64,000 bases of DNA, from positions 65,574-129,573 of the forward strand of contig JBAZKH010000005.1 of NCBI GenBank assembly GCA_041650935.1. The letters are read 5' to 3'. Below the pieces are notes generated by a model. That model was given only the letters and a program-made list of their open reading frames with translations, was not told where the DNA came from and did no database searches. The stretch comes from Candidatus Omnitrophota bacterium (GTDB lineage Bacteria > Omnitrophota > Gorgyraeia > 2-01-FULL-45-10). Numbering within the stretch: the stretch's first letter is position 1; every line of letters begins with the position of its first letter. Made by a program: the position numbers and the translations under genes. This document shows positions 1-11,601 of the stretch, one piece after another.

Positions 1-1316
1 TCTCTGTAAGAATCGAGCTTTGCTATACCGTCGTCCAGTTTAAAGCTCAAGCCATAGATAGGAGCTTTTTTATTTATGAAGTCTGTGAATCTTTTTACAC
101 TAAAATTAGCTTTATTAGCTACATAGTAATCGAAATCTTCCTTGATTAAGGCTATATTGAACATGCCCTTAATAAGCGACAGGTCTTTGTCTAAAGAATA
201 GATGGTTTTTTGGTCATCCGTTTTGGCAAGATTTTCTACGAGGGTTGTTTCGAGTTTCGCTATTTCCTTATACAGGACGAGCTTGTCTATAGCATCATAT
301 TTTTTTACATATTCGGAGTATTTTACAAGGTTAGGCAGTTTGCTAAAATCTACTCCCGTAAAGCGTGCCTTCTTAAGCAGATAACTGTAAAATTCTTCAT
401 TTGTAATATCGCCCTGCTTGAACTGCACGCTCTTTACGACAAGCTCTTCCAAATCTTTCGTAGAGAGCTTTTGGTTAAGCTTATCGATGAGAATGCTGCG
501 TTCAGTGTCGGCATTTTTGAAATTTATGGATTTTTCATCATTTAGGATAGTAAGGAGGCTGGATAGGTTCGGGTAGGTATTAATGTCGACTTTTTGTAAC
601 TCCGCTTTCTCTTTCAAGAATGCGATATAGGCCTTAAAATCTATCTTGCTGTCTTTATACGCCTTTATCTTTTCGTCAACTTCTTTGAGTTCTGGGGAAT
701 ACGCTTTTAGCTTAAGGTTCGTTATCGCTAGAGATAGTGTATTGAGATATTTATCGACTTCCTCCTTATATATAAGAGAGGATCGATAGGCGTTTAAGTT
801 CTCCCCATAGAGTTTTTCATCTTCTATGCCGAAAAGTTTTACTTTATCCGGGTTATTTATAGCAAAGAATTCAGGTCCGGATATCCGCCCTTCCTTTACG
901 AAATAGTCGGAAACCTTTTTTCTTAATTCGGGGTCTTTAATTTTAGTAAATATGGAAAGATCGTAATTACCCTTACCGCCTTCCAGTGATACTAAACCTA
1001 TATTATAGGTAGATACGAGATGTTTTATAATGGCTTCTGAGGCATGCTGGGCTGAATAATTACAATGGGCGTCCTGAATGTGGATGATAGTCTTGCCGTT
1101 AGAACCTTTGAACGTGTCTTTTATCTCACCGAAACGAAAAGGTATTGAAATGCCATTTATATCTAAAGGAGCGGTGCTTATATTGCCAGCTGATACCGCT
1201 GGATTTGTAGCGTTAGCGCCCCACGCAAGATCGTAAAACACCATGTTAGAGAAAAAAGCACATAGAGTAACAAAAGATATCAGCACACGATATAGTCTTT
1301 TCTCTTTTATATGCAT
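1..1316 (-). CDS. Hypothetical secreted protein. The N-terminus is in the window and the C-terminus runs off the window start. Signal-peptide-like N-terminus MHIKEKRLYRVLISFVTLCAFFSNMVFYDLAWGA.
   Basis: The reverse strand is open from an ATG at 1316-1314 to position 1 with no stop. It is AT-rich with coherent codon usage. The N-terminus is basic then hydrophobic and ends in a DLAWG motif shared with the 1641-aa protein. The ORF is absent from the track only because it lacks an in-window stop. Confidence 0.5.
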   Translation of the reverse strand, partial: MHIKEKRLYRVLISFVTLCAFFSNMVFYDLAWGANATNPAVSAGNISTAPLDINGISIPFRFGEIKDTFKGSNGKTIIHIQDAHCNYSAQHASEAIIKHLVSTYNIGLVSLEGGKGNYDLSIFTKIKDPELRKKVSDYFVKEGRISGPEFFAINNPDKVKLFGIEDEKLYGENLNAYRSSLIYKEEVDKYLNTLSLAITNLKLKAYSPELKEVDEKIKAYKDSKIDFKAYIAFLKEKAELQKVDINTYPNLSSLLTILNDEKSINFKNADTERSILIDKLNQKLSTKDLEELVVKSVQFKQGDITNEEFYSYLLKKARFTGVDFSKLPNLVKYSEYVKKYDAIDKLVLYKEIAKLETTLVENLAKTDDQKTIYSLDKDLSLIKGMFNIALIKEDFDYYVANKANFSVKRFTDFINKKAPIYGLSFKLDDGIAKLDSYR

Positions 1317-1575
1317 TTTTGTTTCCCCTTAAAATTTTTCATTGTCAGATATCGAGTTTGATGTATAAAAAAACCAAGCCGCCTTATCTTCTAGGCAGCT
1401 TGGCTATCTAGCGTAAAATACGTTCTCTAGACCGTCAGCTTTGCGCCCTCGCGTCTCCGCGAGTTTGCCTTTATTCTAGAATATTGTAATTTAAGCATAT
1501 CATACATTTATGTTAAGTCAAGAAAAAGTTACTGCCTTTTTTATCTCTAACATTGATTAGGCCAGTAAAAATAGA

Positions 1576-1669
1576 AAAGGCACTGGCTATATGCTAACCA
1601 ATGCCTCTTTTGACTTCTTACTAACCCTCTTACTTAGGTCTAACACCTCTATTTCGCACAACTCTTTGA
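1576..1669. repeat. Direct-repeat copy 1, about 95 bp, about 90% identical to 9866-9962. It includes a terminator-like hairpin.
   Basis: Manual alignment of atatgctaaccaatgcctcttttgacttcttactaaccctcttacttaggtctaacacctctatttcgcacaactctttga against the copy at 9882-9962. Confidence 0.7.
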
Positions 1670-1696
1670 GAACACTATCCTTAAAATAGTGTGAGT

Positions 1697-1721
1697 TTCG
1701 AATGGTGGTGAGGGTTTATTG
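1697..1721 (-). pseudogene. Degenerate 3'-end fragment of tRNA-Tyr (acceptor, T-arm remnant, CCA).
   Basis: tggtggtgagggtttattgcgaacc resembles the 3' end of the intact tRNA-Tyr at 9995-10020 (tggtggtgagggatggattcgaacc). Confidence 0.5.
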
Positions 1722-1816
1722 CGAACCAAACTCAATAATATTTTACCTTAACTCCATCAGTATAATATCTATTTCATCTATTGTAACATATTCAACTATT
1801 GGATATGTCCGATTTT

Positions 1817-2113
1817 TTAGGGATGCGGCGTAATTGCAAAAACAACGATTTCGCCCCTGGCTTTTCCATAATAAAAGAAGATGCGAAATGCTGCCGGAGT
1901 ATTCTGCTCGGCATACGCTTCAAAGACCTTTTCTCCGTTTAGACCACACAAAGAAGTATATGGATGCGTTTGTAATCCTGGATGCCGCGGATTGTCCGCT
2001 AGGAGTTTTAATGCTTTGGAAGCCGCCTTGAAACGTTTCTCTAAATGGGCGGAGCGTTTCAACTCTTTTAAGTTTTCTCTTGCTTCAGGAGTAAAACTAA
2101 GGAAGAAACTCAT
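1817..2113 (-). CDS. Putative type II toxin, RelE/ParE-like, 98 aa.
   Basis: Small basic protein. It overlaps the upstream AbrB-type antitoxin gene by 4 bp (ATGA), a typical TA operon arrangement. The motifs FTPEARENLKEL and RIFFYYG..GEIVVFAITPH are reminiscent of the ParE/RelE fold. Confidence 0.4.
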   Translation of the reverse strand: MSFFLSFTPEARENLKELKRSAHLEKRFKAASKALKLLADNPRHPGLQTHPYTSLCGLNGEKVFEAYAEQNTPAAFRIFFYYGKARGEIVVFAITPHP

Positions 2114-2451
2114 AAATCGTTTAAGAAACTTTCCAGATCATCGGCCTTTTCTATCTTGCCTTCTGCCGCCTCTTTTAACCCCCGTCGTATCTTGCCGATA
2201 ACTTCCGAGTTACGATATATCCACGCCTCGTTACTGGGAACCGATACGGCGGGCCGGAGTAATATATCCCCTTCTTTGCCGACAAATACCTGGTAAGAAT
2301 CAATCTTCATCTTACTCATTAAGAGTTTTTGCAACCTTCCCCCCAGCGTTATACGGTGCTTGGAATCGAGTGGCCGGGTATCTACGGGTATAAACACCTC
2401 CCGGATCTCAAAGGTTTGCTTTTTCTTTTGCGCGGCTTTTAATGTCTTCAT
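2110..2451 (-). CDS. AbrB/MazE (SpoVT-AbrB) family antitoxin-like protein, 113 aa.
   Basis: Swapped-hairpin AbrB-like motif DSKHRITLGGRLQKL...VFVGKEGDILLRP. It lies first in a two-gene operon with a small toxin-like ORF. Confidence 0.55.
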   Translation of the reverse strand: MKTLKAAQKKKQTFEIREVFIPVDTRPLDSKHRITLGGRLQKLLMSKMKIDSYQVFVGKEGDILLRPAVSVPSNEAWIYRNSEVIGKIRRGLKEAAEGKIEKADDLESFLNDL

Positions 2452-2559
2452 TATAATCCCTCTCTTTCTAGTAAAAGTATATCATACAGTGGGAATATTG
2501 TCAAGTGGGAAAGTGGGATTTTCTGGGCATAAACCACACATAGGCAAACACGAGTGGTT

Positions 2560-2592
2560 TATGGTGGTGAGAGATGGATTCCTCTTCAGCCG
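2560..2592 (-). pseudogene. Decayed tRNA 3'-end remnant.
   Basis: tggtggtgagagatggattcctcttcagccgcc matches the tRNA-Tyr 3' end with indels. Confidence 0.3.
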
Positions 2593-2751
2593 CCAGAGGC
2601 AGATCCAGAACTAGCCGAATCCACTATACAACAATTGCCCTACTTCGCTCTTCACCGCTCAGGTAGTGGTTGAGCTTCGTAGGGGCATTCTGCCTACATG
2701 TACAATTTCTGCGAAGCCCTACCTCAGCCTTACTCTGAAGGGCGCAGCAGA

Positions 2752-2776
2752 ATGGTGGTGAGGGTTCGAACCGAAC
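2752..2776 (-). pseudogene. tRNA 3'-end remnant (T-loop, acceptor, CCA).
   Basis: tggtggtgagggttcgaaccgaac has reverse complement GGTTCGAACCCTCACCACCA. Confidence 0.45.
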
Positions 2777-2863
2777 TTAACTCCTGCATATTTTACCATA
2801 ATTCCGACGATACACTAGCCATAAATTCAATGACTGAAAATGTGCGACAGTAGTAATAGCGAA

Positions 2864-4270
2864 TTAACCGTGGATCTCCCAATGCCCGCCTTTATCGGGA
2901 CCAATACGTTTAATAATGCCTTTTTCCTTTAGTTTTGACAAATGCTTTTCGATAGCTCTACTGGTTACGCCTAATAGCTGGGCAATCTGTTGCGCTGAGA
3001 TAGCGGGGTTTTCTTTAATTGCCGCAATAATCTTCTCCGAACTTTTCTCCGAACTTTTCTCCGAACTTATTTGAATTTGCTTATCCGGTTTGGGATTATG
3101 AAAAACTGTCACAAAACTGCCGCCAGCCTCTTCATAAGTTGGTTCGGGTAATCCCCACTCTTTGCACCACCGAATGATTTTACTTGTTCCTGAACCCACA
3201 TCCTCGGCGAATTTAATCCAGAAAAAGGCTTTGGCAATCAGAGGATTACGTGGAATCGAATCGTGCTTTCCTTTTAATTTTTCTATGGTAAGCGGCGGAG
3301 GTAAAAGTCCGGGATTCCAAACTTCCAGTCGATCGTCAAAAATCCTTACTTGGACTTTACCTGAACTGGCATAGTCTCGATGAGCCAAAGCGTTTGCCAG
3401 AGCTTCTCTTATGGCATCCTGTGGATAAAGCCATTTTTCCTGACGTTGGAGCTTCCCTGATTCTATCCATGCTTTCATTGGGATATGATCGTAGATAAAG
3501 CTTTCCGCTTTCTCAAGAAGCGTAATCGCGTCTCCGCCGATTGTTTTGAAATCAAGCATCGGTTTGGTTTCATCTACACCTTTGAACCGAATAGCTTTTA
3601 ATTCGGCTTGCAAAAAGAAGGATTGCGTGTCTTTTCCAAATAATAGAATGGCCGCATTGGTCAGCTTGCCGTTTTTTATTAACTTTAGCTTTCTCAAAAT
3701 ATCCGGCACCGGCGTCTCACGATCTATATTCAACCCTCTTTGTTCTTTGGCTTTTTTAACAAAGGTCAAAAGCTTTTCGTTACTGATATCTGTAATTTTT
3801 GCTTCCTTACAGATTTGTTCATCGAAATACAACCTGCCCTTATGCTTCTCAAGGATCAAACGCTCGTACTCATCCTTAGACATCTTAACCGTAGAGCGCC
3901 CCACGCGCTTATATGGCCGCCCAAAGGCAAGCACCAAATGATCGTGGGATTCTTTGACCTCGATAACGATCACGTCTTTATTGTCAATTTTCTTTACAAT
4001 TACATTGGGATGAAGCTTAGGGTCAGTATGCTGGGCTATTTGATTGACCAACTTCTCAATCGTACCTTTACCGATCTGAACACTATAAATCGTGCCTTCA
4101 GGGGAAACACCTATAAATAGCTGACCGCCTTCCGTATTCGCAAAAGCGGCTGCCGTCTCGATTATCTCATCGATCTCGGCTAAAGATTGTTTCCACTCAA
4201 TGATGGTGGATTCACCCATACCGATTATCTTTTTAATCTTCATACTCTTCTCCGAAGCAGAATATAGCAT
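2864..4270 (-). CDS. COG2865-type putative transcriptional regulator (Schlafen/AlbA_2 domain, HATPase_c_4 and C-terminal wHTH; RecG C-terminal-like).
   Basis: N-terminal AlbA_2-like stretch ESTIIEWKQSL. The conserved AIREALANALAHRDY motif and a C-terminal HTH (ISAQQIAQLLGVTSRAIEKHLSKLKEKGII) are also present. Confidence 0.8.
   Translation of the reverse strand: MLYSASEKSMKIKKIIGMGESTIIEWKQSLAEIDEIIETAAAFANTEGGQLFIGVSPEGTIYSVQIGKGTIEKLVNQIAQHTDPKLHPNVIVKKIDNKDVIVIEVKESHDHLVLAFGRPYKRVGRSTVKMSKDEYERLILEKHKGRLYFDEQICKEAKITDISNEKLLTFVKKAKEQRGLNIDRETPVPDILRKLKLIKNGKLTNAAILLFGKDTQSFFLQAELKAIRFKGVDETKPMLDFKTIGGDAITLLEKAESFIYDHIPMKAWIESGKLQRQEKWLYPQDAIREALANALAHRDYASSGKVQVRIFDDRLEVWNPGLLPPPLTIEKLKGKHDSIPRNPLIAKAFFWIKFAEDVGSGTSKIIRWCKEWGLPEPTYEEAGGSFVTVFHNPKPDKQIQISSEKSSEKSSEKIIAAIKENPAISAQQIAQLLGVTSRAIEKHLSKLKEKGIIKRIGPDKGGHWEIHG
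3040..3075. repeat. Three tandem copies of a 12-bp unit (cttttctccgaa) encoding SEKSSEKSSEK.
   Basis: Seen directly in the sequence, inside the COG2865 gene just before its HTH domain. Confidence 0.8.
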
Positions 4271-4315
4271 GAGAGCAGGAAAAATGGAAGGTAAAAGTTG
4301 AGGACATACTGAAAA

Positions 4316-7300
4316 TTACGCGGCGGTTTTGATATACTTTCGTATGATATGATTCACTTCCATGACATGGGCATAATCGACCTGTCTAATCGGCGGTAGG
4401 ATAAAGGCTATCGTCATTACGAATTCACCGATATCGGCTATACGCAGTTCTTCATCGGTTAATTTCCTATTCGCCAAGGATTCAAAAGCACTCCGCAAGC
4501 TTGCAATGCTATTTGTATGAAGTGCCCTCATTGCTCGCATTATGCCTTCGACCTGAACGGGTTCTTTGCACCGCTCAAAAGCCATGGCCTTTATGTCTGC
4601 TCCTAACTCTTTTGCCAGGTTGCTACCAAGTATCGCCCTGACTTCATCTGTACTTGGACAGGCAACACCGAATTCGAATTTATAATTTTTAAAATCGTTG
4701 CCATACTCGGCACGATAATAATCTAGCGTCTTCTGCATCTTAATACGTACCTTGTCCACAAAATTGCCCGGGCCATCCCCTGCTAAACGAACTATCTTCT
4801 CGCTATAGTCTCTACGCCTCATGTCAAATTCGACATTTGTCAGGATTGGCCTTTGCGCTTCTGGTATTATAGAATCTGTAATAATATCGCAACGTATCGT
4901 GTTATTAGCAATGACAGGGGTATTTTGAAGATTCTCGGCATGAATCTTGTCCGCATCGGCCTTATCCAAATCGGAATCGGCTTCTTCTTGCGGTGATAAA
5001 GTCCTGGCGGCGAGCTTTTCCCGCAATTTCGCTATGCCTTCGCCTTGTGTGCTTTGACGAACAGGGGCTACATCGGCCTGTCCCGTTTGCTGCCGGGTCG
5101 AAGATGTGGCTTCACTTTTTGCCGGCGTACCGCTACTGGATAAGACTTCGCTTAAACCCAAGGGTTGGTCGGATATGGTTATGGTTTTAGACAGCACACT
5201 ATTCGAGTCACGCAACTTCTGTGCTAATTGCCGTAATGCCCGAGAAGATTCTTCTGGTTGAGGTATGGCTGCGCGTAATTCGAGGCGGTGGGCATAGGCC
5301 TCTCTTCTTTCCACAGAGCATTGTCTTAACTCATCATCTAAATAGCGTAAAAACCATTTATCATCTTTTGGCTGATAGATCGCTATGTCAGACCTGCGAG
5401 ATAATATTTCCAGTGCACGCCAAAATATAATCATATCTTTATTCCATTCGGGAAAATATTGATAGAGGTCCTCACAACCCTTTGTAGGAGAAAGAAAGGA
5501 TTCTCTTAAGTCGCGAACTGGTCTTTTATTTATACTGGTTATATCATGCATATATACATCTGCAAGTCGCAAAACTTCTTCTTCTGGCAAAGCATATACC
5601 TCGTCTATTTCCTCGGTTGATATACAATCTTCGCCGGACAGAAATTTCCTTAACCAAACCAAGTAATCTTGAAGTTCTTGGGGTTCCCATAAAAATCCTT
5701 CATAGTAACATTTCACCCATGACGCATTTAATATAGCTTCTGTTATCTTTTTGCGCTTTGCGGTCTCGTCCCTATTTGCCGCTGCGCCACCGGATGCGGA
5801 CGCAACCGCATTAAACTCTTTTAGTGCCTCGCCGCTCATTGCTTCGGTAACGGCACGGCAGATCTCGGCATGGTACGGCATTGCGGTAAGACTTGCTATA
5901 AATTCTTTAAGAGTATATACGCTGGCTTCTATGCTTCCTCTTGCCAATCCTGCGATACGAACTATTTCTGCCCGTTGTTCATCTTTTTCGAGTTTCGAGG
6001 CTTCCCGAATCAGATTCTGAATAATATCTATTGGATATCCGCCACCTAAATCTTTTGGCAACGGCTTTAGTTCTTTGCCTTCCGCAACTAACAAAACCGG
6101 AGCGGATTCAATCGTCCTTATGATATTATTGACATACATCTCTAGCCCCGTCAAAGATACTCCTTTTACCTGTCCTCTTCTTATCGCATAACCATAATTA
6201 GCCGCTATATGTGGAAACAAATTCATAAATTCGTAATCACATGAACCGACGGAGGTAACTCTTGACAGATTATTTTTTTCTAATGTGCCACTATAAGGCT
6301 TCGCTGTAAAGAAACAATAATAGGCGGGTTGCCCGAAACCAACATTTTGTAGCAATAAATCGATAGCGTATCTTTTAGTACCGGTTCCGATGTAATCGTC
6401 CACAACGATGAATTTCTTCGATTTAATCTCATTGAAAGTTCGATTGTCAAGGCCCATAACCTGCCGTAGTTTTTCATTTTGAGCTGATGCAGTCAAGCCT
6501 CCTCCTAGCAATGCTCTCTTGTCATCGTGATTAACAAGATAGATTAGCGGCATATTTTTGTTGCCATAAAGATGTTTCCATGCTGTTTCCAAAAGCATCG
6601 TTGGAAGCACTGCGCTGTCGCCAAAGAGTAAAATTGTACCGAACCCATTATCGTGAATCATTCTCGCAATTTCAATCGACACCGTAGCTATAGTTTCCGC
6701 CTCCCGCATGTCTTTGGTGATATTTTGCTGGACAAGCGGAGTGCCGGACTTACAGCGATTTATGTTAAAATCCCTGCTTTCCCAGTGGCCTGCTGTCCAG
6801 AAAAATGTGAAAACATTGACATCTTTCGGTAGGACGGCTTCATGGCGACCTGCTGTATTCTCGATTAACGGAATCATTCGACAATTATTCCAATGACCAA
6901 AATCGTCTTTTATACCTGCCCATACAAATCCCGGCGCCCCTTTAGATGGCTCTCCTACGGTCACCCGCACTCTATCTTCGGGGCCTATATCTAATACCTT
7001 CCCGCTTTCGAATGTCCAGACAACATCTTTTCCTTCGAGTTGAGGTTGGCTCTCCAATGGAGTACCTTTAAATTCAGGATGCTCGCGAAGCTTACCGGTT
7101 AAAAAGACTAAGTCGTTCAATAATATCGATGTACCACCATGCTTAGTATTAAAGATACGCTGCTCCTTTGATGGTTTGCTATAAAACCCTTCTGTCATAT
7201 TACCGGACATCATTAGCCCTATCTCACTGTTTGCAAGATCCCGTCCAGCATTTACCGCTATAGGTATGCCAGGCATTCCTATAACATTACCGTCATTAAG

Positions 7301-9241
7301 TCGTTCATCATATCTGTCACCATAGAATGCGACTAAGGAGACCTTTGAATTTAAATGCTCAGCCAACCACACTAACGCACTGCCTTTTGTTCCGTAATTA
7401 TCTTCATGTATCAGTCTGTAACCCCGGGTATCTTCATATTCATAAATGCGTTTCTCTTTGAAGAATTTATCCCGAGCAGCTAATATCAAATAGATATGGC
7501 TCAGCAAATATGATTTATGCAGTTTGTGAAGTTTATTGGCAAGATGATCGAGCGCCCTCCAGTAAAATGTCTCTTTTGTCGCGAGAGTATCGAAAGCAAT
7601 ATAACCGCCTTCTTCAAGATAAGCTATGATAGCGTTTACAATAGGCTCGTTTTCTTTATCACTCATTAAGCTTGTAATAGATATCGTCGTCTCATCCATA
7701 TCGAGTCCTAACAGCGGGGCACGCTTATCACGGCTTAGAATATGGTTGAGTCTCTCTTCAAGTACCTTTATCCTATCATCTTTAGTAGCGCCGCTGGATG
7801 CGGATGAACGAGTCGCTTGCTGCGCATTTAATTCGGCATAGCTTATAGGAGGTTTCGGAATAGGCAATGGATTTTCATCCGATGGCGTATCTTCAGGCTG
7901 GTCAGGCTTATAATTGTGCCGTCCAGACGGTGGCTCAGCACCGGGTAGTTTCGGACCGGGTAAACGTTTTGCGTGGGCTTCACCTCTCGCCATTACGCCT
8001 GGATTTTGCGATGCGACTGGGGCGGAGCTATTAGCTCCGGTAAATAATTCTCCATTCTCTGCTGTAGCGAGAAGTTTTTCATATCGATCTATTATTGGCT
8101 TAAATGTTACACCTTTATATCTATGTTTTATCTGTTCAAAATCCGCGCCTCTTCTGGATGCGATAATATCTTCCAAGCAACCTAAGTCTCTGGCAAATTT
8201 CAATTCTTCTTCGATTATTTCTAGGCACGCATGATGAAAGACATATTCAAATTTCAAATCACATATTTCATTGTCATAACATAACAATTCCAAAAATTCA
8301 TGCAATACACCGCAAATCATTTGCCTATTCCCTGTACGTTCTCTCAATAGAGTAAACGCAAGTGGTGAATATATAATATATACACCGGGTCCCCATATCC
8401 CTAACTTTTTTAAATCGTCTCTCGTTTGGCCATCAGAGATCCATTCATCGTATACTTTGCGCGGGATGTTAATTACTCCGTCTCCGATATTAAAATATTT
8501 ATTTGCGATACCTAATAGCTCATAGTCCGGAATTAAAACCGTGCCTTCCACTTTTAGTTCACTGGCCATATCTTCTAAAAATTCTATCGGGTCGCTAAGA
8601 TATATCGATTTTTTTGCATTCATTAATTTGTGATATGTGTTCCAAACAAGATCGCGGACTTTGGAAAACTTTTCCTTATAATCTTCCTCTGTTTGTGTTT
8701 TGTCAGGATTAACAAACCACACCCCTTCAAGTCCGGGGCACGAGAGATGGGCTATGTCTGCATCCGTTTTGATCTCAAAATTTCTTAGCTCTTCCAGATC
8801 CTGTGGAGTAAAATCAGCATAATCTCTGAGAAGTAACGCTTTTACCTGTTTGCCTTCCTTCTTAAAATTAAATGTGGCGATTGCCCATTTTTTCCCACTA
8901 GTTAAGCTACCTTTTTCAATACTTGCACCTATCTCAACTTCGCCAGCAGGAAAACATGTCTTATTCAATCTTGCAATTTGACCTTCTCTCACGTCTCCAG
9001 CTATGAATAGATTGCGCAATTCAACCGCCGCATAAGACGCAGTAAAGCCTGTACGGAAATCCATGCCCCACTTATCGAAGAATGGCTTGGATCTTAATTG
9101 TGCCGCAAGGGTAGTAGTGTTAGAAGAAGTGTAGCCGGAGGAAGGTTGTGCCCACGCAAGATCATTGACCAGAAATGTACACACTATGGCTATCGTTATA
9201 GCTTTAAATAATATGCTATATCTATTTTTATATACAAACAT
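4316..9241 (-). CDS. Giant (1641 aa) secreted multidomain protein with a HAD-like phosphatase module and a type I phosphoribosyltransferase-like module.
   Basis: N-terminal signal peptide. A Pro-rich linker precedes the HAD motif I LGLDMDETTI and motif IV-like FYGDRYDERLNDGNV. The PRPP-binding-loop-like FIVVDDYIGTGTKRY is present. It is a long uninterrupted ORF in AT-rich DNA. Confidence 0.8.
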   Translation of the reverse strand: MFVYKNRYSILFKAITIAIVCTFLVNDLAWAQPSSGYTSSNTTTLAAQLRSKPFFDKWGMDFRTGFTASYAAVELRNLFIAGDVREGQIARLNKTCFPAGEVEIGASIEKGSLTSGKKWAIATFNFKKEGKQVKALLLRDYADFTPQDLEELRNFEIKTDADIAHLSCPGLEGVWFVNPDKTQTEEDYKEKFSKVRDLVWNTYHKLMNAKKSIYLSDPIEFLEDMASELKVEGTVLIPDYELLGIANKYFNIGDGVINIPRKVYDEWISDGQTRDDLKKLGIWGPGVYIIYSPLAFTLLRERTGNRQMICGVLHEFLELLCYDNEICDLKFEYVFHHACLEIIEEELKFARDLGCLEDIIASRRGADFEQIKHRYKGVTFKPIIDRYEKLLATAENGELFTGANSSAPVASQNPGVMARGEAHAKRLPGPKLPGAEPPSGRHNYKPDQPEDTPSDENPLPIPKPPISYAELNAQQATRSSASSGATKDDRIKVLEERLNHILSRDKRAPLLGLDMDETTISITSLMSDKENEPIVNAIIAYLEEGGYIAFDTLATKETFYWRALDHLANKLHKLHKSYLLSHIYLILAARDKFFKEKRIYEYEDTRGYRLIHEDNYGTKGSALVWLAEHLNSKVSLVAFYGDRYDERLNDGNVIGMPGIPIAVNAGRDLANSEIGLMMSGNMTEGFYSKPSKEQRIFNTKHGGTSILLNDLVFLTGKLREHPEFKGTPLESQPQLEGKDVVWTFESGKVLDIGPEDRVRVTVGEPSKGAPGFVWAGIKDDFGHWNNCRMIPLIENTAGRHEAVLPKDVNVFTFFWTAGHWESRDFNINRCKSGTPLVQQNITKDMREAETIATVSIEIARMIHDNGFGTILLFGDSAVLPTMLLETAWKHLYGNKNMPLIYLVNHDDKRALLGGGLTASAQNEKLRQVMGLDNRTFNEIKSKKFIVVDDYIGTGTKRYAIDLLLQNVGFGQPAYYCFFTAKPYSGTLEKNNLSRVTSVGSCDYEFMNLFPHIAANYGYAIRRGQVKGVSLTGLEMYVNNIIRTIESAPVLLVAEGKELKPLPKDLGGGYPIDIIQNLIREASKLEKDEQRAEIVRIAGLARGSIEASVYTLKEFIASLTAMPYHAEICRAVTEAMSGEALKEFNAVASASGGAAANRDETAKRKKITEAILNASWVKCYYEGFLWEPQELQDYLVWLRKFLSGEDCISTEEIDEVYALPEEEVLRLADVYMHDITSINKRPVRDLRESFLSPTKGCEDLYQYFPEWNKDMIIFWRALEILSRRSDIAIYQPKDDKWFLRYLDDELRQCSVERREAYAHRLELRAAIPQPEESSRALRQLAQKLRDSNSVLSKTITISDQPLGLSEVLSSSGTPAKSEATSSTRQQTGQADVAPVRQSTQGEGIAKLREKLAARTLSPQEEADSDLDKADADKIHAENLQNTPVIANNTIRCDIITDSIIPEAQRPILTNVEFDMRRRDYSEKIVRLAGDGPGNFVDKVRIKMQKTLDYYRAEYGNDFKNYKFEFGVACPSTDEVRAILGSNLAKELGADIKAMAFERCKEPVQVEGIMRAMRALHTNSIASLRSAFESLANRKLTDEELRIADIGEFVMTIAFILPPIRQVDYAHVMEVNHIIRKYIKTAA

Positions 9242-9337
9242 GGTAGAAAATTATACCATGAAATATGTTAAGTCAATAGAAAGATATCTACATTTTTGAA
9301 TTCCTAATGCTTTTGAATTATTCACTTCATCAGTGCA

Positions 9338-9775
9338 CTATTTATATAGCGCTTCATAGATAAGCGCGTCATTTTCGTGGGCGGCTTCCACTTGATCAAG
9401 GCTTTGCTCTTGTCTTTCCCTGGCAAGTTCCTTCTTTAGATAATCAATAATGAATCCGTCTATTCTTTTCCATACATAAGAGCTAAAACGGACGGGCTTG
9501 GGGTTACCATGCTTGTCTTTATATCGGAGGTTATAGGTTTGAATCTTATCGTACAAGATAAATACCATCTGAGAGAGAATGTCTTCGCTGAAACGATCAC
9601 GATAAATCGGGAATATTATCTTGTGAATTCGAAAAAGGACAAATCCTATATGCCGCAGGATAAGCTCATTGGCCTTGCCTTTATCACCCTTTTTTGCCTG
9701 GGCAATGAGGCGTCTTTCTTCCTCAAGAGAAAGCTTTTGATATTTAGGGATAGCCGTACGATAGGTTTCGAACAT
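9338..9775 (-). CDS. Sigma-70 region-2-only protein (sigma-factor-like, lacking regions 3 and 4).
   Basis: LSLEEERRLIAQAKKGDKGKANELILRHIGFVLFRIHK matches sigma-70 regions 1.2/2.1-2.2. FSSYVWKRIDGFIIDYLKK matches region 2.4. The protein is only 145 aa. It lies immediately upstream of the giant gene on the same strand. Confidence 0.55.
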   Translation of the reverse strand: MFETYRTAIPKYQKLSLEEERRLIAQAKKGDKGKANELILRHIGFVLFRIHKIIFPIYRDRFSEDILSQMVFILYDKIQTYNLRYKDKHGNPKPVRFSSYVWKRIDGFIIDYLKKELARERQEQSLDQVEAAHENDALIYEALYK

Positions 9776-9857: not shown

Positions 9858-9903
9858 GGCGGCAAAAAAGAGGCATCGGTTATATGCTAACCAATGCCTC
9901 TTT
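9858..9903 (-). terminator. Rho-independent terminator-like hairpin plus T-run, downstream of tRNA-Tyr.
   Basis: On the minus strand, aaaagaggcattggttagcatataaccgatgcctctttt is followed by ttttttgcc. The stem is about 14 bp with one mismatch. Confidence 0.5.
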
Positions 9904-9962
9904 TGACTTCTTAGCAACCCTCTTACTTAGGTCTAAAACCACTATTTCGCACAAGTCTTTGA
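9866..9962. repeat. Direct-repeat copy 2 (partner of 1576-1669).
   Basis: Manual alignment. It lies immediately 3' of tRNA-Tyr. Confidence 0.7.
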
Positions 9963-9994
9963 TGTCACAATAATTAAAAATACTTGAGTAAAGT

Positions 9995-10080
9995 TGGTGG
10001 TGAGGGATGGATTCGAACCATCGAAGGCTTGCGCCGCCAGATTTACAGTCTGGTCCATTTGGCCGCTATGGTACCTCACC
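9995..10080 (-). tRNA. tRNA-Tyr (anticodon GTA), type II with a long variable arm.
   Basis: Reverse complement is GGTGAGGTACCATAGCGGCCAAATGGACCAGACTGTAAATCTGGCGGCGCAAGCCTTCGATGGTTCGAATCCATCCCTCACCACCA. Acceptor stem is GGTGAGG/CCTCACC. The anticodon loop is CTGTAAA. The T-loop is GGTTCGAATCC and CCA is encoded. Confidence 0.9.
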
Positions 10081-10360: not shown

Positions 10361-10705
10361 CTATGCAAATTGAACGCGCCTTTTGGGATGAATCAAGCGC
10401 TCAAGCCTGTGCCTAATAGTACTGTTAAGAGGAATGGCTTGCATTTTAACCGTATAGCCGATAAAAAGCAATACCTTTTCGAGGGTAGAAATACTGCTGA
10501 ATTCACCGTTTTCAATCTTCGAAATATGCTGCTGGGTTACCCCCACCTTATCGGCTAACTGTTTCTGGCTGAGTTTATTTTTAACCCGATATTCGATAAT
10601 CCGTTTTACGATCTTGAGTTTTTGTTCCTCAAGCTCATAAAGCTCCTTAAAATAAGGGTCTTTCAACTTTTCTTTTAAGTGCTCATCTACTTTTTGTAGT
10701 TTCAT
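10361..10705 (-). CDS. higA: XRE-family HTH antitoxin (HigA-like).
   Basis: HTH motif LSQKQLADKVGVTQQHISKIENGE. It lies directly downstream of a HigB/Gp49-like toxin gene. Confidence 0.7.
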   Translation of the reverse strand: MKLQKVDEHLKEKLKDPYFKELYELEEQKLKIVKRIIEYRVKNKLSQKQLADKVGVTQQHISKIENGEFSSISTLEKVLLFIGYTVKMQAIPLNSTIRHRLERLIHPKRRVQFA

Positions 10706-10719
10706 ATTAATCGTCTCCC

Positions 10720-11085
10720 TTATTGTCTACTTAAAAAATCGTTCCTTCTTTCGATGGCTATAATTATCTCATTTTTAGGAGTTTTCCGCGCCTTTTTTAT
10801 AAAGCCATTGGTAAATACTGCTTTATCTTCATGATAAAAGAAATACAAAACCCTGACCGCTCCTTCATGTCCTTTGAATCTCAACTCAAAGATGCTATCC
10901 CCAATATATTTGGCATGAGGAAATGGCAATCTATGACCAAATTCCTCCAATAATTCCTTAACAAAGAAAAACTTTCTTTGTGATTTAAAATCCAATGAAT
11001 CAACAAATTCTTTTACAGGCGATTTGCCTGATTCTGTAAGGTAATAATAAGTCGCTATTTTAGCCACTAACTCCGTACCCCTCAA
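10720..11085 (-). CDS. higB: RelE/ParE-superfamily toxin, HigB/Gp49-like (PF05973-type).
   Basis: IFELRFKGHEGAVRVLYFFYHEDKAVFTNGFIKKARKTPKNEIIIAIERR is typical of Gp49-like HigB toxins. Toxin-first order with an XRE antitoxin following. Confidence 0.7.
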   Translation of the reverse strand: MRGTELVAKIATYYYLTESGKSPVKEFVDSLDFKSQRKFFFVKELLEEFGHRLPFPHAKYIGDSIFELRFKGHEGAVRVLYFFYHEDKAVFTNGFIKKARKTPKNEIIIAIERRNDFLSRQ

Positions 11086-11431: not shown

Positions 11432-11490
11432 TCATGCCTTTCCTTTTCATAATTCTTCTTTTCAGGCGCTCCTCTATATTCAGATTAACT

Positions 11491-11507
11491 AGAGCTGGGG
11501 AGAGGAC
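11491..11507 (-). repeat. 17-nt partial duplicate of the tRNA-Thr 3' end (gagctggggagaggact).
   Basis: Identical to 11529-11545 inside the intact tRNA-Thr and lies 21 nt away from it. Confidence 0.5.
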
Positions 11508-11525
11508 TCGGCCGACTTAAATAAT

Positions 11526-11601
11526 TGGAGCTGGGGAGAGGACTTGAACCTCCAACAGCGTGCTTACAAAGCACGAACTCTACCAGTTGAGTTACCCCAG
11601 C
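11526..11601 (-). tRNA. tRNA-Thr (anticodon TGT), intact.
   Basis: Reverse complement is GCTGGGGTAACTCAACTGGTAGAGTTCGTGCTTTGTAAGCACGCTGTTGGAGGTTCAAGTCCTCTCCCCAGCTCCA. Acceptor stem is GCTGGGG/CCCCAGC. Anticodon stem is CGTGC/GCACG with loop TTTGTAA. Confidence 0.85.

Follow-up and report, generated by a model that had tools for sequence, protein, structure and literature searches.

A 1641-residue Omnitrophota protein with a predicted export signal and HAD- and phosphoribosyltransferase-like modules belongs to a family with constant ends and interchangeable middles

In a 64,000-nucleotide stretch of contig JBAZKH010000005.1 from a Candidatus Omnitrophota bacterium (the whole of it hereafter called the window), a minus-strand gene at 4316..9241 encodes a protein of 1641 amino acids (aa) that combines a predicted signal peptide with a HAD-phosphatase-like module and a module related to type I phosphoribosyltransferases (PRTs). 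Sequence comparison places this protein in a family in which a constant head and a constant tail, here named the N frame and the C frame, enclose an interchangeable middle of enzyme or regulatory domains, and as far as sampled the family is restricted to the Omnitrophota. Members of this phylum are ultra-small, uncultured and probably host-dependent bacteria.

One genuine gene of an Omnitrophota bacterium occupies the interval 4316..9241. On the minus strand it forms one uninterrupted open reading frame (ORF), stop codon included, which starts with ATG and contains no internal stop over 4,923 nt, and translation of the plus strand over the same interval meets many stops. A protein from an NCBI metagenome-assembled genome (MAG) of Candidatus Omnitrophota (P0001, on a 157-kb contig) is 100% identical to the window ORF. 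The annotated start of P0001 is a GTG 19 codons downstream of the ATG (9184 vs 9241), a start that would leave the signal peptide without its n-region and with only half of its h-region. Since the motif MFxYKxRYSxLxK, which lies upstream of this GTG, is kept in every relative, and the promoter position described below agrees, we prefer the ATG at 9241 as the start.

Six word-index matches to the whole protein had their common part at the two ends, with 43-67% identity over aa 1-180 and 30-47% identity over aa ~1428-1641, and the C-terminal 215 aa proved to be the most conserved part. A genome scan with a profile of the tail found 16 species-representative loci, all in Omnitrophota MAGs (some of them labelled 'uncultured Planctomycetia'), and a metagenome scan with a profile of the head found 21 more. 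Frame-bearing genes are present on ~35 contigs, and all that can be attributed come from Omnitrophota MAGs. The N frame shares 38-69% identity with the N-terminal parts of P0002-4, P0006, P0082-83 and of ORFs in L008-L043, and has no sequence relative in Pfam or the PDB. Family members were recognised by a signal followed by TLAPxxRLKPFF...GVWFxNP and by a terminal ...LNxLIxxNIKxAA-COOH in one ORF; the window ORF carries both, the fuller head motif being TLAPxxRLKPFFEKHG ... GVWFxNP and the tail motif being followed directly by the stop codon. The two frames co-occur in every complete ORF of at least ~650 aa (656-3178 aa).

Between these ends, the middle consists of methyltransferases in P0002, MutS domain V in P0003, a pyridoxal phosphate-type decarboxylase in P0004, GDE_C / GH-type domains in P0005, which is without the N frame, and radical SAM plus aldo-keto reductase domains in P0006. 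The genome and metagenome loci add an NAD-dependent epimerase, a CheR-type methyltransferase, a DnaJ domain, an ARMT1 phosphatase, four HK-type ATPase domains together with a methyltransferase, a WD40 propeller, and sigma-70 regions 2-4. The sigma-70 regions (L038, 733-4707) lie behind a signal-like N-terminus, as does the DnaJ domain (L018, 6925-9552), which is flanked by three extra hydrophobic segments. Two MAGs have two loci each, and in L011 two family genes with different middles (1594-5490 and 5611-9615) stand in tandem, 120 nt apart.

The tail has conserved polar residues (two Cys, a Q-x-E and an Arg) that, by the usual logic of its fold, would line a ligand site. All members end in x-Ala-Ala-COOH (KTAA, EAAA, KQAA, KNAA and others; window 4319-4330; L007-L043), an end that resembles the LAA-COOH of ssrA degradation tags and could act as a recognition element for a protease or for sorting. 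In L001 (7666-8487) the tail occurs as a stand-alone protein of 273 aa without a signal peptide, between genes for a histidine kinase and a response regulator. That the C-termini of other Omnitrophota giants (...FIRSA, ...ALISA and others) are versions of the same tail was not supported by hhalign, with probabilities mostly <1%, and the N-termini of these giants match over the signal-peptide stretch only. No paralogue of either frame was found elsewhere in the window, and a tblastn search of plasmids gave no match.

Long multi-enzyme proteins have been described from Omnitrophota, bearing HAD, methyltransferase and radical-SAM domains together with a signal peptide or transmembrane helices, their function being unresolved (bioRxiv 10.64898/2026.06.07.730766; bioRxiv 10.1101/2023.11.21.568195). 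Sugar-metabolism domains are also common on them, and the contradiction between cytoplasm-type cargo and an export signal has been discussed for proteins far longer than those studied here (bioRxiv 10.64898/2026.06.07.730766). The framed family resembles these proteins in its phylum and in the combination of a signal peptide with tiled enzyme domains (HAD, methyltransferase, HK ATPase, radical SAM), but they were catalogued at 10 kaa (thousand amino acids) or more, whereas the framed family spans 0.66-3.2 kaa. The window protein (1.6 kaa) thus shares the Omnitrophota origin, the predicted signal and the presence of several enzyme domains, and falls short of the 10-kaa length. We found no description of the N domain, of the C domain ending in xAA or of the shared promoter in the literature searched, including the long-protein studies. 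As far as our searches reach, long multi-enzyme proteins of Omnitrophota are known, and the frame, the promoter and the three domain families reported here are undescribed.

Two established systems combine some of the same features. Polymorphic toxins and effectors of the Rhs, CDI and MARTX type also join constant trafficking-type parts to interchangeable enzymatic parts and occur as several paralogues, sometimes in tandem. However, the framed family varies internally, keeps both ends constant, and lacks both an immunity gene downstream and a conserved neighbour. A polymorphic toxin was ruled out by the constant C-terminal 215 aa, by the DNA downstream of the family stop codons, which is not conserved, and by the lack of any recurrent neighbour gene in the flanks of 37 loci; the window gene itself was not classed as one because it has no immunity, secretion or conserved neighbour gene and its C-terminus is constant. 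Cargo of type IX secretion likewise has an N-terminal Sec-type signal and a conserved extreme C-terminal domain. The C-terminal domains of that system are Ig-like 3+4 beta-sandwiches (PMC11285876), whereas the tail of the framed family is a ~215-aa alpha/beta Rossmann-like domain, and this candidate was rejected as well.

An exhaustive search with aa 476-1430 of the window protein returned 60 relatives and resolved the recurring modules of its middle. Many proteins of 1.2-3.8 kaa carry module A (aa ~485-845), as do short proteins of 270-420 aa, and the module comprises a HAD-like core and a beta-sandwich, for which structure prediction gave a confident model; the sub-part covering aa ~730-835 also occurs alone in small proteins. 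Among 19 homologues, D514, D516 and T518 of HAD motif I were kept in 18, 17 and 16, T552 of motif II was Thr or Ser in all 19, and K619 of motif III was Lys or Arg in 18, while in motif IV (G641-D642...N647-D648) D642 and D648 were each kept in 17/18. The module thus has a motif I of the form DxDx[TV] along with motifs II, III and IV and, with its catalytic residues intact, is probably an active phosphatase. Motifs II and III are separated by an insert of ~67 aa, which may indicate the type of cap.

When a profile of 19 sequences was searched against all PDB sequences, the IMP-specific 5'-nucleotidase ISN1 came first (E=1.2e-3) and Cof-type HAD hydrolases next, HAD enzymes making up 13 of the top 16 matches, and a profile of the core only gave the same ranking (E=5e-3). 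In the ISN1 alignment, motif I and motifs III/IV fall in order, GDQFLHSGND of ISN1 standing against the consensus GDRFDDPLND. Single sequences were less informative: Pfam and NCBIfam scans with the whole protein and seven segments gave no HAD match, and a direct search of PDB sequences with the window protein returned nothing. The homologues, scanned separately, were equally weak against Pfam (one of 19 touches PF08282, E=0.05), and cluster look-ups gave 'hypothetical protein' only. The module resembles ISN1 (PDB 6rmd, 6rme, 6rmo) and Cof-type HADs (3niw, 4qjb) in having DxDxT, the motif III Lys and GD-x4-6-ND in the same order, its own motif IV reading GDRYDERLND. In contrast to ISN1, to which the link is a superfamily-level one of ~20 bits only, it lacks the other ISN1 domains, has the appended beta-sandwich and is embedded in a chain of 1641 aa that begins with a predicted signal peptide. 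On these motifs and profile matches, we read the relationship as a remote superfamily link and not a chance match.

Elsewhere, module A is fused to a GH77 4-alpha-glucanotransferase (P0024 and P0025 by Pfam, P0039 by eye from similar sequence), to CBM48 (P0038, by Pfam) and to a GDE-like N-terminus (P0049, by eye), as well as to RNA 3'-phosphate cyclase and metallophosphatase domains. Because of the GH77, CBM48 and GDE-like partners, a carbohydrate-binding role of the beta-sandwich is plausible.

The relatives of the PRT-fold module (module B, aa ~840-1010) are a set of ~200-aa 'hypothetical proteins' that come from metagenomes only and have no Pfam family or name. Its loop resembling that for phosphoribosyl pyrophosphate (PRPP), FIVVDDYIGTGTK at aa 944-956, has D948-D949, G954 and K956 conserved in 18-19 of 19 sequences; it reads FIVV-DD-YIG-T-G-T-K in the window protein, to be compared with the PRPP-loop pattern of four hydrophobic residues, an acidic pair, two residues and [ST]-G-x-T, and the position of the final Thr of that pattern is an invariant Lys in this family. 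A profile of 20 homologues matched PRTs almost exclusively in the PDB, with E=3.6e-4 for the purine PRT 1vdm and an alignment to HPRT 6bo7 over profile positions 8-140, nearly its full length. PRTs were 19 of 26 among the matches listed, and PyrR, APRT, HGPRT and PurF were also present. The profile search thus supports the PRT fold, and curated models stay below their thresholds (PF00156 at 15.6 bits, 12-15.6 across scans, vs a cut-off of 26.3; NCBIfam APRT at 18.8 bits vs 143). Single-sequence matches to PF00156, PRTase-CE, NCBIfam APRT/OPRT and the PADLOC models for ShosT and retron PRTase are weak and confined to the loop; those to ShosT (E=1e-4) and retron PRTase_III-A (0.0098) cover aa 922-967, no stretch passing alone. 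The neighbouring genes are not ShosA or reverse transcriptase, and the module does not qualify as a defence effector of either kind.

Type I PRTs (1vdm, 6bo7, PyrR, APRT, PurF) and module B have in common a hydrophobic strand, an acidic pair and an [ST]-G-x-[TK] phosphate loop, preceded in both by an N-terminal helix, a strand and a small-residue loop. Module B differs in the Lys that replaces the last loop Thr and in its own SGxS and Trp motifs, and no hood or base-binding region is recognisable. The first Ser of SGxS, present in 19 of 20 sequences, is F873 in the window protein, a Phe that is unique among the 20. Taken together, the profile matches and motifs indicate a remote superfamily relationship and not a chance match. 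Structure predictions were made for single domains, and MAFFT alignments of the combined HAD, sandwich and PRT modules or of aa 1-1015 mostly mis-placed the PRT rows.

The only hydrophobic segment of the window protein spans aa 10-28, and most relatives have the same single N-terminal segment; in L018 and in L030 there are three more such segments, and the topology is ambiguous. The n-region (K5, R7, K13), the 12-residue h-region (AITIAIVCTFLV) and the c-region (NDLAWA|QP) are conserved in the family alignment, with small residues kept at -3 and -1 family-wide, features that predict Sec export and cleavage after Ala31. Upstream of the gene lies a strong promoter with the -35 box TTGACT (9271-9276), a 15-nt spacer and an extended -10 element TGgTATAAT (hexamer 9250-9255); it is preceded by the palindrome AGATATCT and is separated from the ATG by 8 nt without a Shine-Dalgarno (SD) motif. 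The same cassette stands 5' of family genes in 11 other loci (L009, L011, L014, L016, L023, L026, L028, L029, L031, L034 and L036) with 15 invariant columns, and consists across genomes of the palindrome AGATAGCTATCT, TTGACTTAAC and TGnTATAAT, followed by 8-10 nt to the ATG, again without SD. Its non-coding identity equals or exceeds the identity of the coding head, and the shared cassette suggests a common regulator. Since the ATG follows after 8 nt without SD, while most other window genes (~27/42) have an SD-like motif, the mRNA is probably leaderless or nearly so, and in that case constraint on the AT-rich and strongly conserved first codons may come from the RNA as well as from the protein. 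A generic promoter and terminator scan gave counts equal to shuffled controls, and missed the cassette of the window gene because its spacer is 15 nt. Another upstream type (..CCTGTGACA..) is found 5' of L008, L015, L018 and L042, and a copy of the TTGACTTAAC promoter also occurs at window 1509-1542, near a second long-protein gene that starts at 1316.

A preliminary description of this gene had listed a 1641-aa ORF with an N-terminal signal peptide, a Pro-rich linker, HAD motifs I and IV and a PRPP-loop-like segment in AT-rich, tRNA-associated DNA, and in these particulars it agrees with our results, the signal peptide as a predicted feature. The catalytic-residue comparison and the distribution survey that it proposed were carried out and are given above. 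The domain scans it called for had a divided outcome, as single-sequence Pfam and NCBIfam searches stayed below thresholds without any HAD match and homologue profiles matched HAD and PRT structures. Chance low-scoring hits or a fusion of two genes, which it named as possible refutations, are contradicted by the specificity of the profile matches and by the intact frame. The sizes given for the flanks have to be revised, with ~480 aa before the HAD module (not ~300) and ~630 aa after the PRT module (not ~450), and far from being without obvious motifs, both flanks contain conserved family modules.

For the function of the window protein we favour, with evenly balanced confidence, an extracytoplasmic phosphatase or nucleotide-handling role. 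Translation from a leaderless mRNA would be followed by Sec translocation of the framed protein and removal of its signal peptide after Ala31, and the protein would then act outside the cytoplasm of its producer, in the periplasm, at the surface or released. There the HAD module would hydrolyse phosphomonoesters; nucleotides are candidate substrates because the nearest solved relative is an IMP 5'-nucleotidase, and sugar or glucan phosphates are the other candidates because the frequent fusion partners are alpha-glucan enzymes. The PRT-fold domain may have a phosphoribosyl or nucleotide compound as its ligand, the beta-sandwich may tether the unit to a polymer or surface, and the N and C frame domains may handle or position the cargo. 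A small bacterium that depends on a host could use such a protein to scavenge nutrients or to process material derived from that host. Periplasmic HAD acid phosphatases of the class B AphA type, which are Sec-exported phosphomonoesterases that dephosphorylate nucleotides and organic phosphates before uptake, offer a model of how it could work, being likewise HAD-fold phosphomonoesterases with a Sec signal (predicted in the window protein), although AphA-type enzymes are small and single-domain.

Several points weigh against this role. Export of the window protein and its relatives is a prediction, and both enzyme assignments lie below curated cut-offs, at profile E ~1e-3 plus motifs for HAD (Pfam and NCBIfam) and at profile E ~1e-3 or below plus motifs for PRT. 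With F873 at a near-invariant Ser, the PRT-like domain may be only ligand-binding or inactive. The tail also exists as a signal-less stand-alone protein (P0017, 273 aa, mid-contig, with a stop nine codons upstream). Finally, many cargos of the family need cytoplasmic partners or cofactors, which argues against activity in the periplasm; these include sigma-70, the J domain, MutS, HK ATPases, radical SAM, methyltransferases dependent on S-adenosylmethionine (SAM), and the PRPP of the PRT. The reasoning of the preliminary description, that cytoplasm-type enzymes stand behind an export signal, thus extends from one protein to the whole family.

These cargo requirements also speak for a membrane-tethered protein, in which the N-terminal helix would stay uncleaved and serve as an anchor or for assembly, with the enzymes working at the cytoplasmic face of the producer as a scaffolded multi-enzyme or regulatory protein. 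Under such a topology sigma-70 regions 2-4 (L038), DnaJ (L018), MutS, the HK ATPases, radical SAM, the SAM methyltransferases and PRPP would be where they are needed, the tail without signal peptide would be accommodated, and the J-domain loop of L018 is strongly positive, as expected of a cytoplasmic loop; moreover, 46% of long Omnitrophota proteins were read as membrane-anchored with cytoplasmic domains (bioRxiv 10.64898/2026.06.07.730766). However, a charge of +3 before the helix and an Asp after it, the 12-residue h-region and the conserved AxA-type site indicate a cleaved signal with the N-terminus in and the C-terminus out, and the window protein and most relatives have no second hydrophobic segment that would return the chain to the cytoplasm. 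We regard tethering as improbable, though with an appreciable chance of being correct. The preliminary description had instead likened the protein to a host-targeting effector or toxin. The frame would then serve as a signal for delivery, with the enzymes active inside a different cell, host or prey, after transfer by vesicles, by a pilus or secretion apparatus, or by cell-cell contact. A textbook export signal on cargos that make sense in a cytoplasm only, constant ends with variable cargo and paralogue arrays like those of effector repertoires, and the position of the gene on a low-GC tRNA-Tyr insertion with toxin-antitoxin and defence-like genes are in line with this idea, as are the proposal that Omnitrophota are predatory or parasitic with giant surface proteins (PMC10066038) and the weak match of the PRT loop to the toxin ShosT, its best in PADLOC. 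Yet secretion, chaperone and immunity genes do not recur beside family genes at the 37 loci and are missing at the window locus. The cargos are of metabolic or regulatory types, without a recognised toxin domain among them, variation is internal while the C-terminus stays constant, the tail is also a stand-alone protein without a signal, and there is no evidence of a route for folded proteins of 0.7-3 kaa into another cell. What remains of that earlier interpretation is a large export-signal protein with HAD-like and PRT-like modules on a low-GC tRNA insertion; an effector or toxin function we consider unlikely.

More speculatively, the signal peptide and N domain, together with the Rossmann-like tail ending in xAA, could serve this phylum as a sorting or delivery device of its own that sends arbitrary cytoplasm-type proteins (a sigma factor, a J domain, radical-SAM and ATP-dependent enzymes, and in the window protein a phosphatase plus a PRT-fold unit) out of the producer cytoplasm, to a prey or host cell, to vesicles, or to an internal membrane-bounded compartment with ATP, SAM or PRPP, and the leaderless promoter with its upstream palindrome would put the whole repertoire under one regulator; we hold this to be quite unlikely. 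An artefact or decayed gene, whether by mis-assembly, by a missed stop or frameshift between two genes read as one, or with motifs arising by chance, could be suspected from the sub-threshold scores of both enzyme modules and from the position of the gene in an insertion island among other degenerate elements. Against it stand the uninterrupted 4,923-nt frame, the same protein in an independent public record, the presence of head and tail within single ORFs on dozens of contigs that are independent of one another, conserved catalytic motifs in 60 homologues of the central modules, and profile matches that are specific to HAD and PRT structures. This explanation is already disfavoured and has hardly any probability left.

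The analysis defines three uncharacterised, metagenome-only domain families: a HAD-plus-beta-sandwich unit that is often fused to alpha-glucan enzymes, a PRT-fold family of ~200 aa with a DD-x3-[ST]G-x-K loop, and a Rossmann-like tail domain. The paradox of cytoplasm-type enzymes behind export signals in Omnitrophota has been noted before, and the framed genes show it in a compact format of 0.7-3 kaa, in which a constant head, tail and promoter with a swappable middle make questions of export, frame function and enzyme activity tractable. Should the window protein merely be an exported scavenging phosphatase, it would be an ordinary function in an unusual package.

The remaining parts of the protein are listed in Table 1. 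The region at aa 181-432 is 37-40% identical to aa 585-723 of P0005 and to no other protein and has no Pfam match, and a metagenome scan with aa 282-478 and the linker found no relatives. The Pro-rich linker occurs in three proteins only (the window ORF, P0005 and P0004) among all sequences fetched. Within aa 1011-1340, which again had no match in the Pfam scan, only aa 1055-1156 has a relative, P0041 (51% identity), and the Ser/Thr/Gln-rich linker that follows looks disordered from its composition. Short HExxH or HExxE motifs, spotted by eye, recur in poorly conserved stretches of P0003, P0026, P0027, P0030, P0035, P0039, P0068 and P0071, and the window protein shares HEFLE...HH (aa 314-337, nt ~8231-8302) with P0005. 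Such motifs may mark a metalloprotease-like self-processing element; jackhmmer did not link the segments of the long proteins that bear them.

Table 1. Features of the window protein, its gene and the surrounding DNA, with positions in the window.
Feature	Residues (aa)	Position (nt)	Strand	Basis or remark
Complete 1641-aa ORF		4316..9241	-	Reading frame; identity to P0001 apart from the start call
Conserved promoter cassette, ~55 nt		9250..9297 (9242-9301 with flanks)	-	Read from sequence; conserved in family
Sec-type signal peptide, predicted signal peptidase I site AWA|QP	1-31	9149..9241	-	Hydrophobicity, family alignment
N frame domain (TLAAQLRSKPFF ... GVWFVNP), ~150 aa	32-180	8702..9148	-	Homologue identity
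Region, function not assigned	181-432	7946..8701	-	aa 282-400 carries the HEFLE...HH motif common with P0005
Pro-rich linker PGAEPPSGRHNYKPDQPEDTPSDENPLPIPKPPISYAELNAQ	433-474	7820..7945	-	Near-identical in P0005, recognisable in P0004
HAD-superfamily phosphatase-like core	485-700	7142..7789	-	Homologue motifs and profile matches
Beta-sandwich, eight-stranded, attached to this HAD type	735-835	6737..7039	-	WTF..GFVWAG..W..PL..EA.LP..FTFFWT..GHWE
Divergent type-I-PRT-fold domain	840-1010	6212..6724	-	PRPP-loop-like DD-x3-TG-x-K at aa 948-956
Region, function not assigned	1011-1340	5222..6211	-	Relative for aa 1055-1156 only
Ser/Thr/Gln-rich linker	1341-1416	4994..5221	-	Composition read from sequence
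C frame domain, Rossmann/flavodoxin-like alpha/beta	1417-1641	4319..4993	-	Ends ...YIKTAA-COOH
Second long-protein gene, runs off left edge		1-1316	-	At least 438 aa in window; N-terminus MHIKEKRLYRVLISFVTLCAFF...IIHIQDAHCNY
Small two-ORF pair		1817-2451		In insertion; ORF 1817-2113 weak ParE_toxin match, other ORF no match
Downstream neighbour, 468-aa AlbA_2/Schlafen + HATPase_c_4 + winged-HTH protein		2864-4270	-	In insertion
Upstream neighbour, 145-aa ORF		9338-9775	-	In insertion; no family match; TATAAT 8 nt before ATG
tRNA-Tyr		9995-10080		3' end repeated at 2753-2778 and 1703-1728
HigB/Gp49-like toxin + HTH_3 antitoxin		10361-11085	-	Between the two tRNAs
tRNA-Thr		11526-11601

The window gene has a GC content of 39-44%, compared to 50-55% for the rest of the window. 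Because three copies of the tRNA-Tyr 3' end and a 112-nt flanking repeat (9868-9979 by the tRNA, recurring at 1575-1686 with 87% identity) delimit low-GC DNA, we place the gene within a ~8.3-kb insertion at tRNA-Tyr, possibly made of two nested or tandem insertions; no integrase was seen in it. The 145-aa ORF upstream may be another leaderless gene. The protein encoded at 2864-4270 matches a pAgo-associated PADLOC model (E=9e-18), and its gene is therefore of defence-island type, and the ParE_toxin match of ORF 1817-2113 is sub-threshold (E=0.022, 15.8 vs 23 bits). The second long protein, encoded at 1-1316, has 38% identity (E=9e-102) to the N-terminus of P0081 and is related to three giants with the same HAD-sandwich or PRT-like modules (P0043, P0042 and P0071), and thus points to a second 'head' family. 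Beyond 11.8 kb the window continues with housekeeping genes (NAD(P)HX dehydratase, AcpS, PdxJ, a DAC-domain protein, FolP, FtsH and TilS). A 23-nt direct repeat at 11486-11508 and 11522-11544 (91% identity) overlaps the end of tRNA-Thr and may be the remnant of another integration site.

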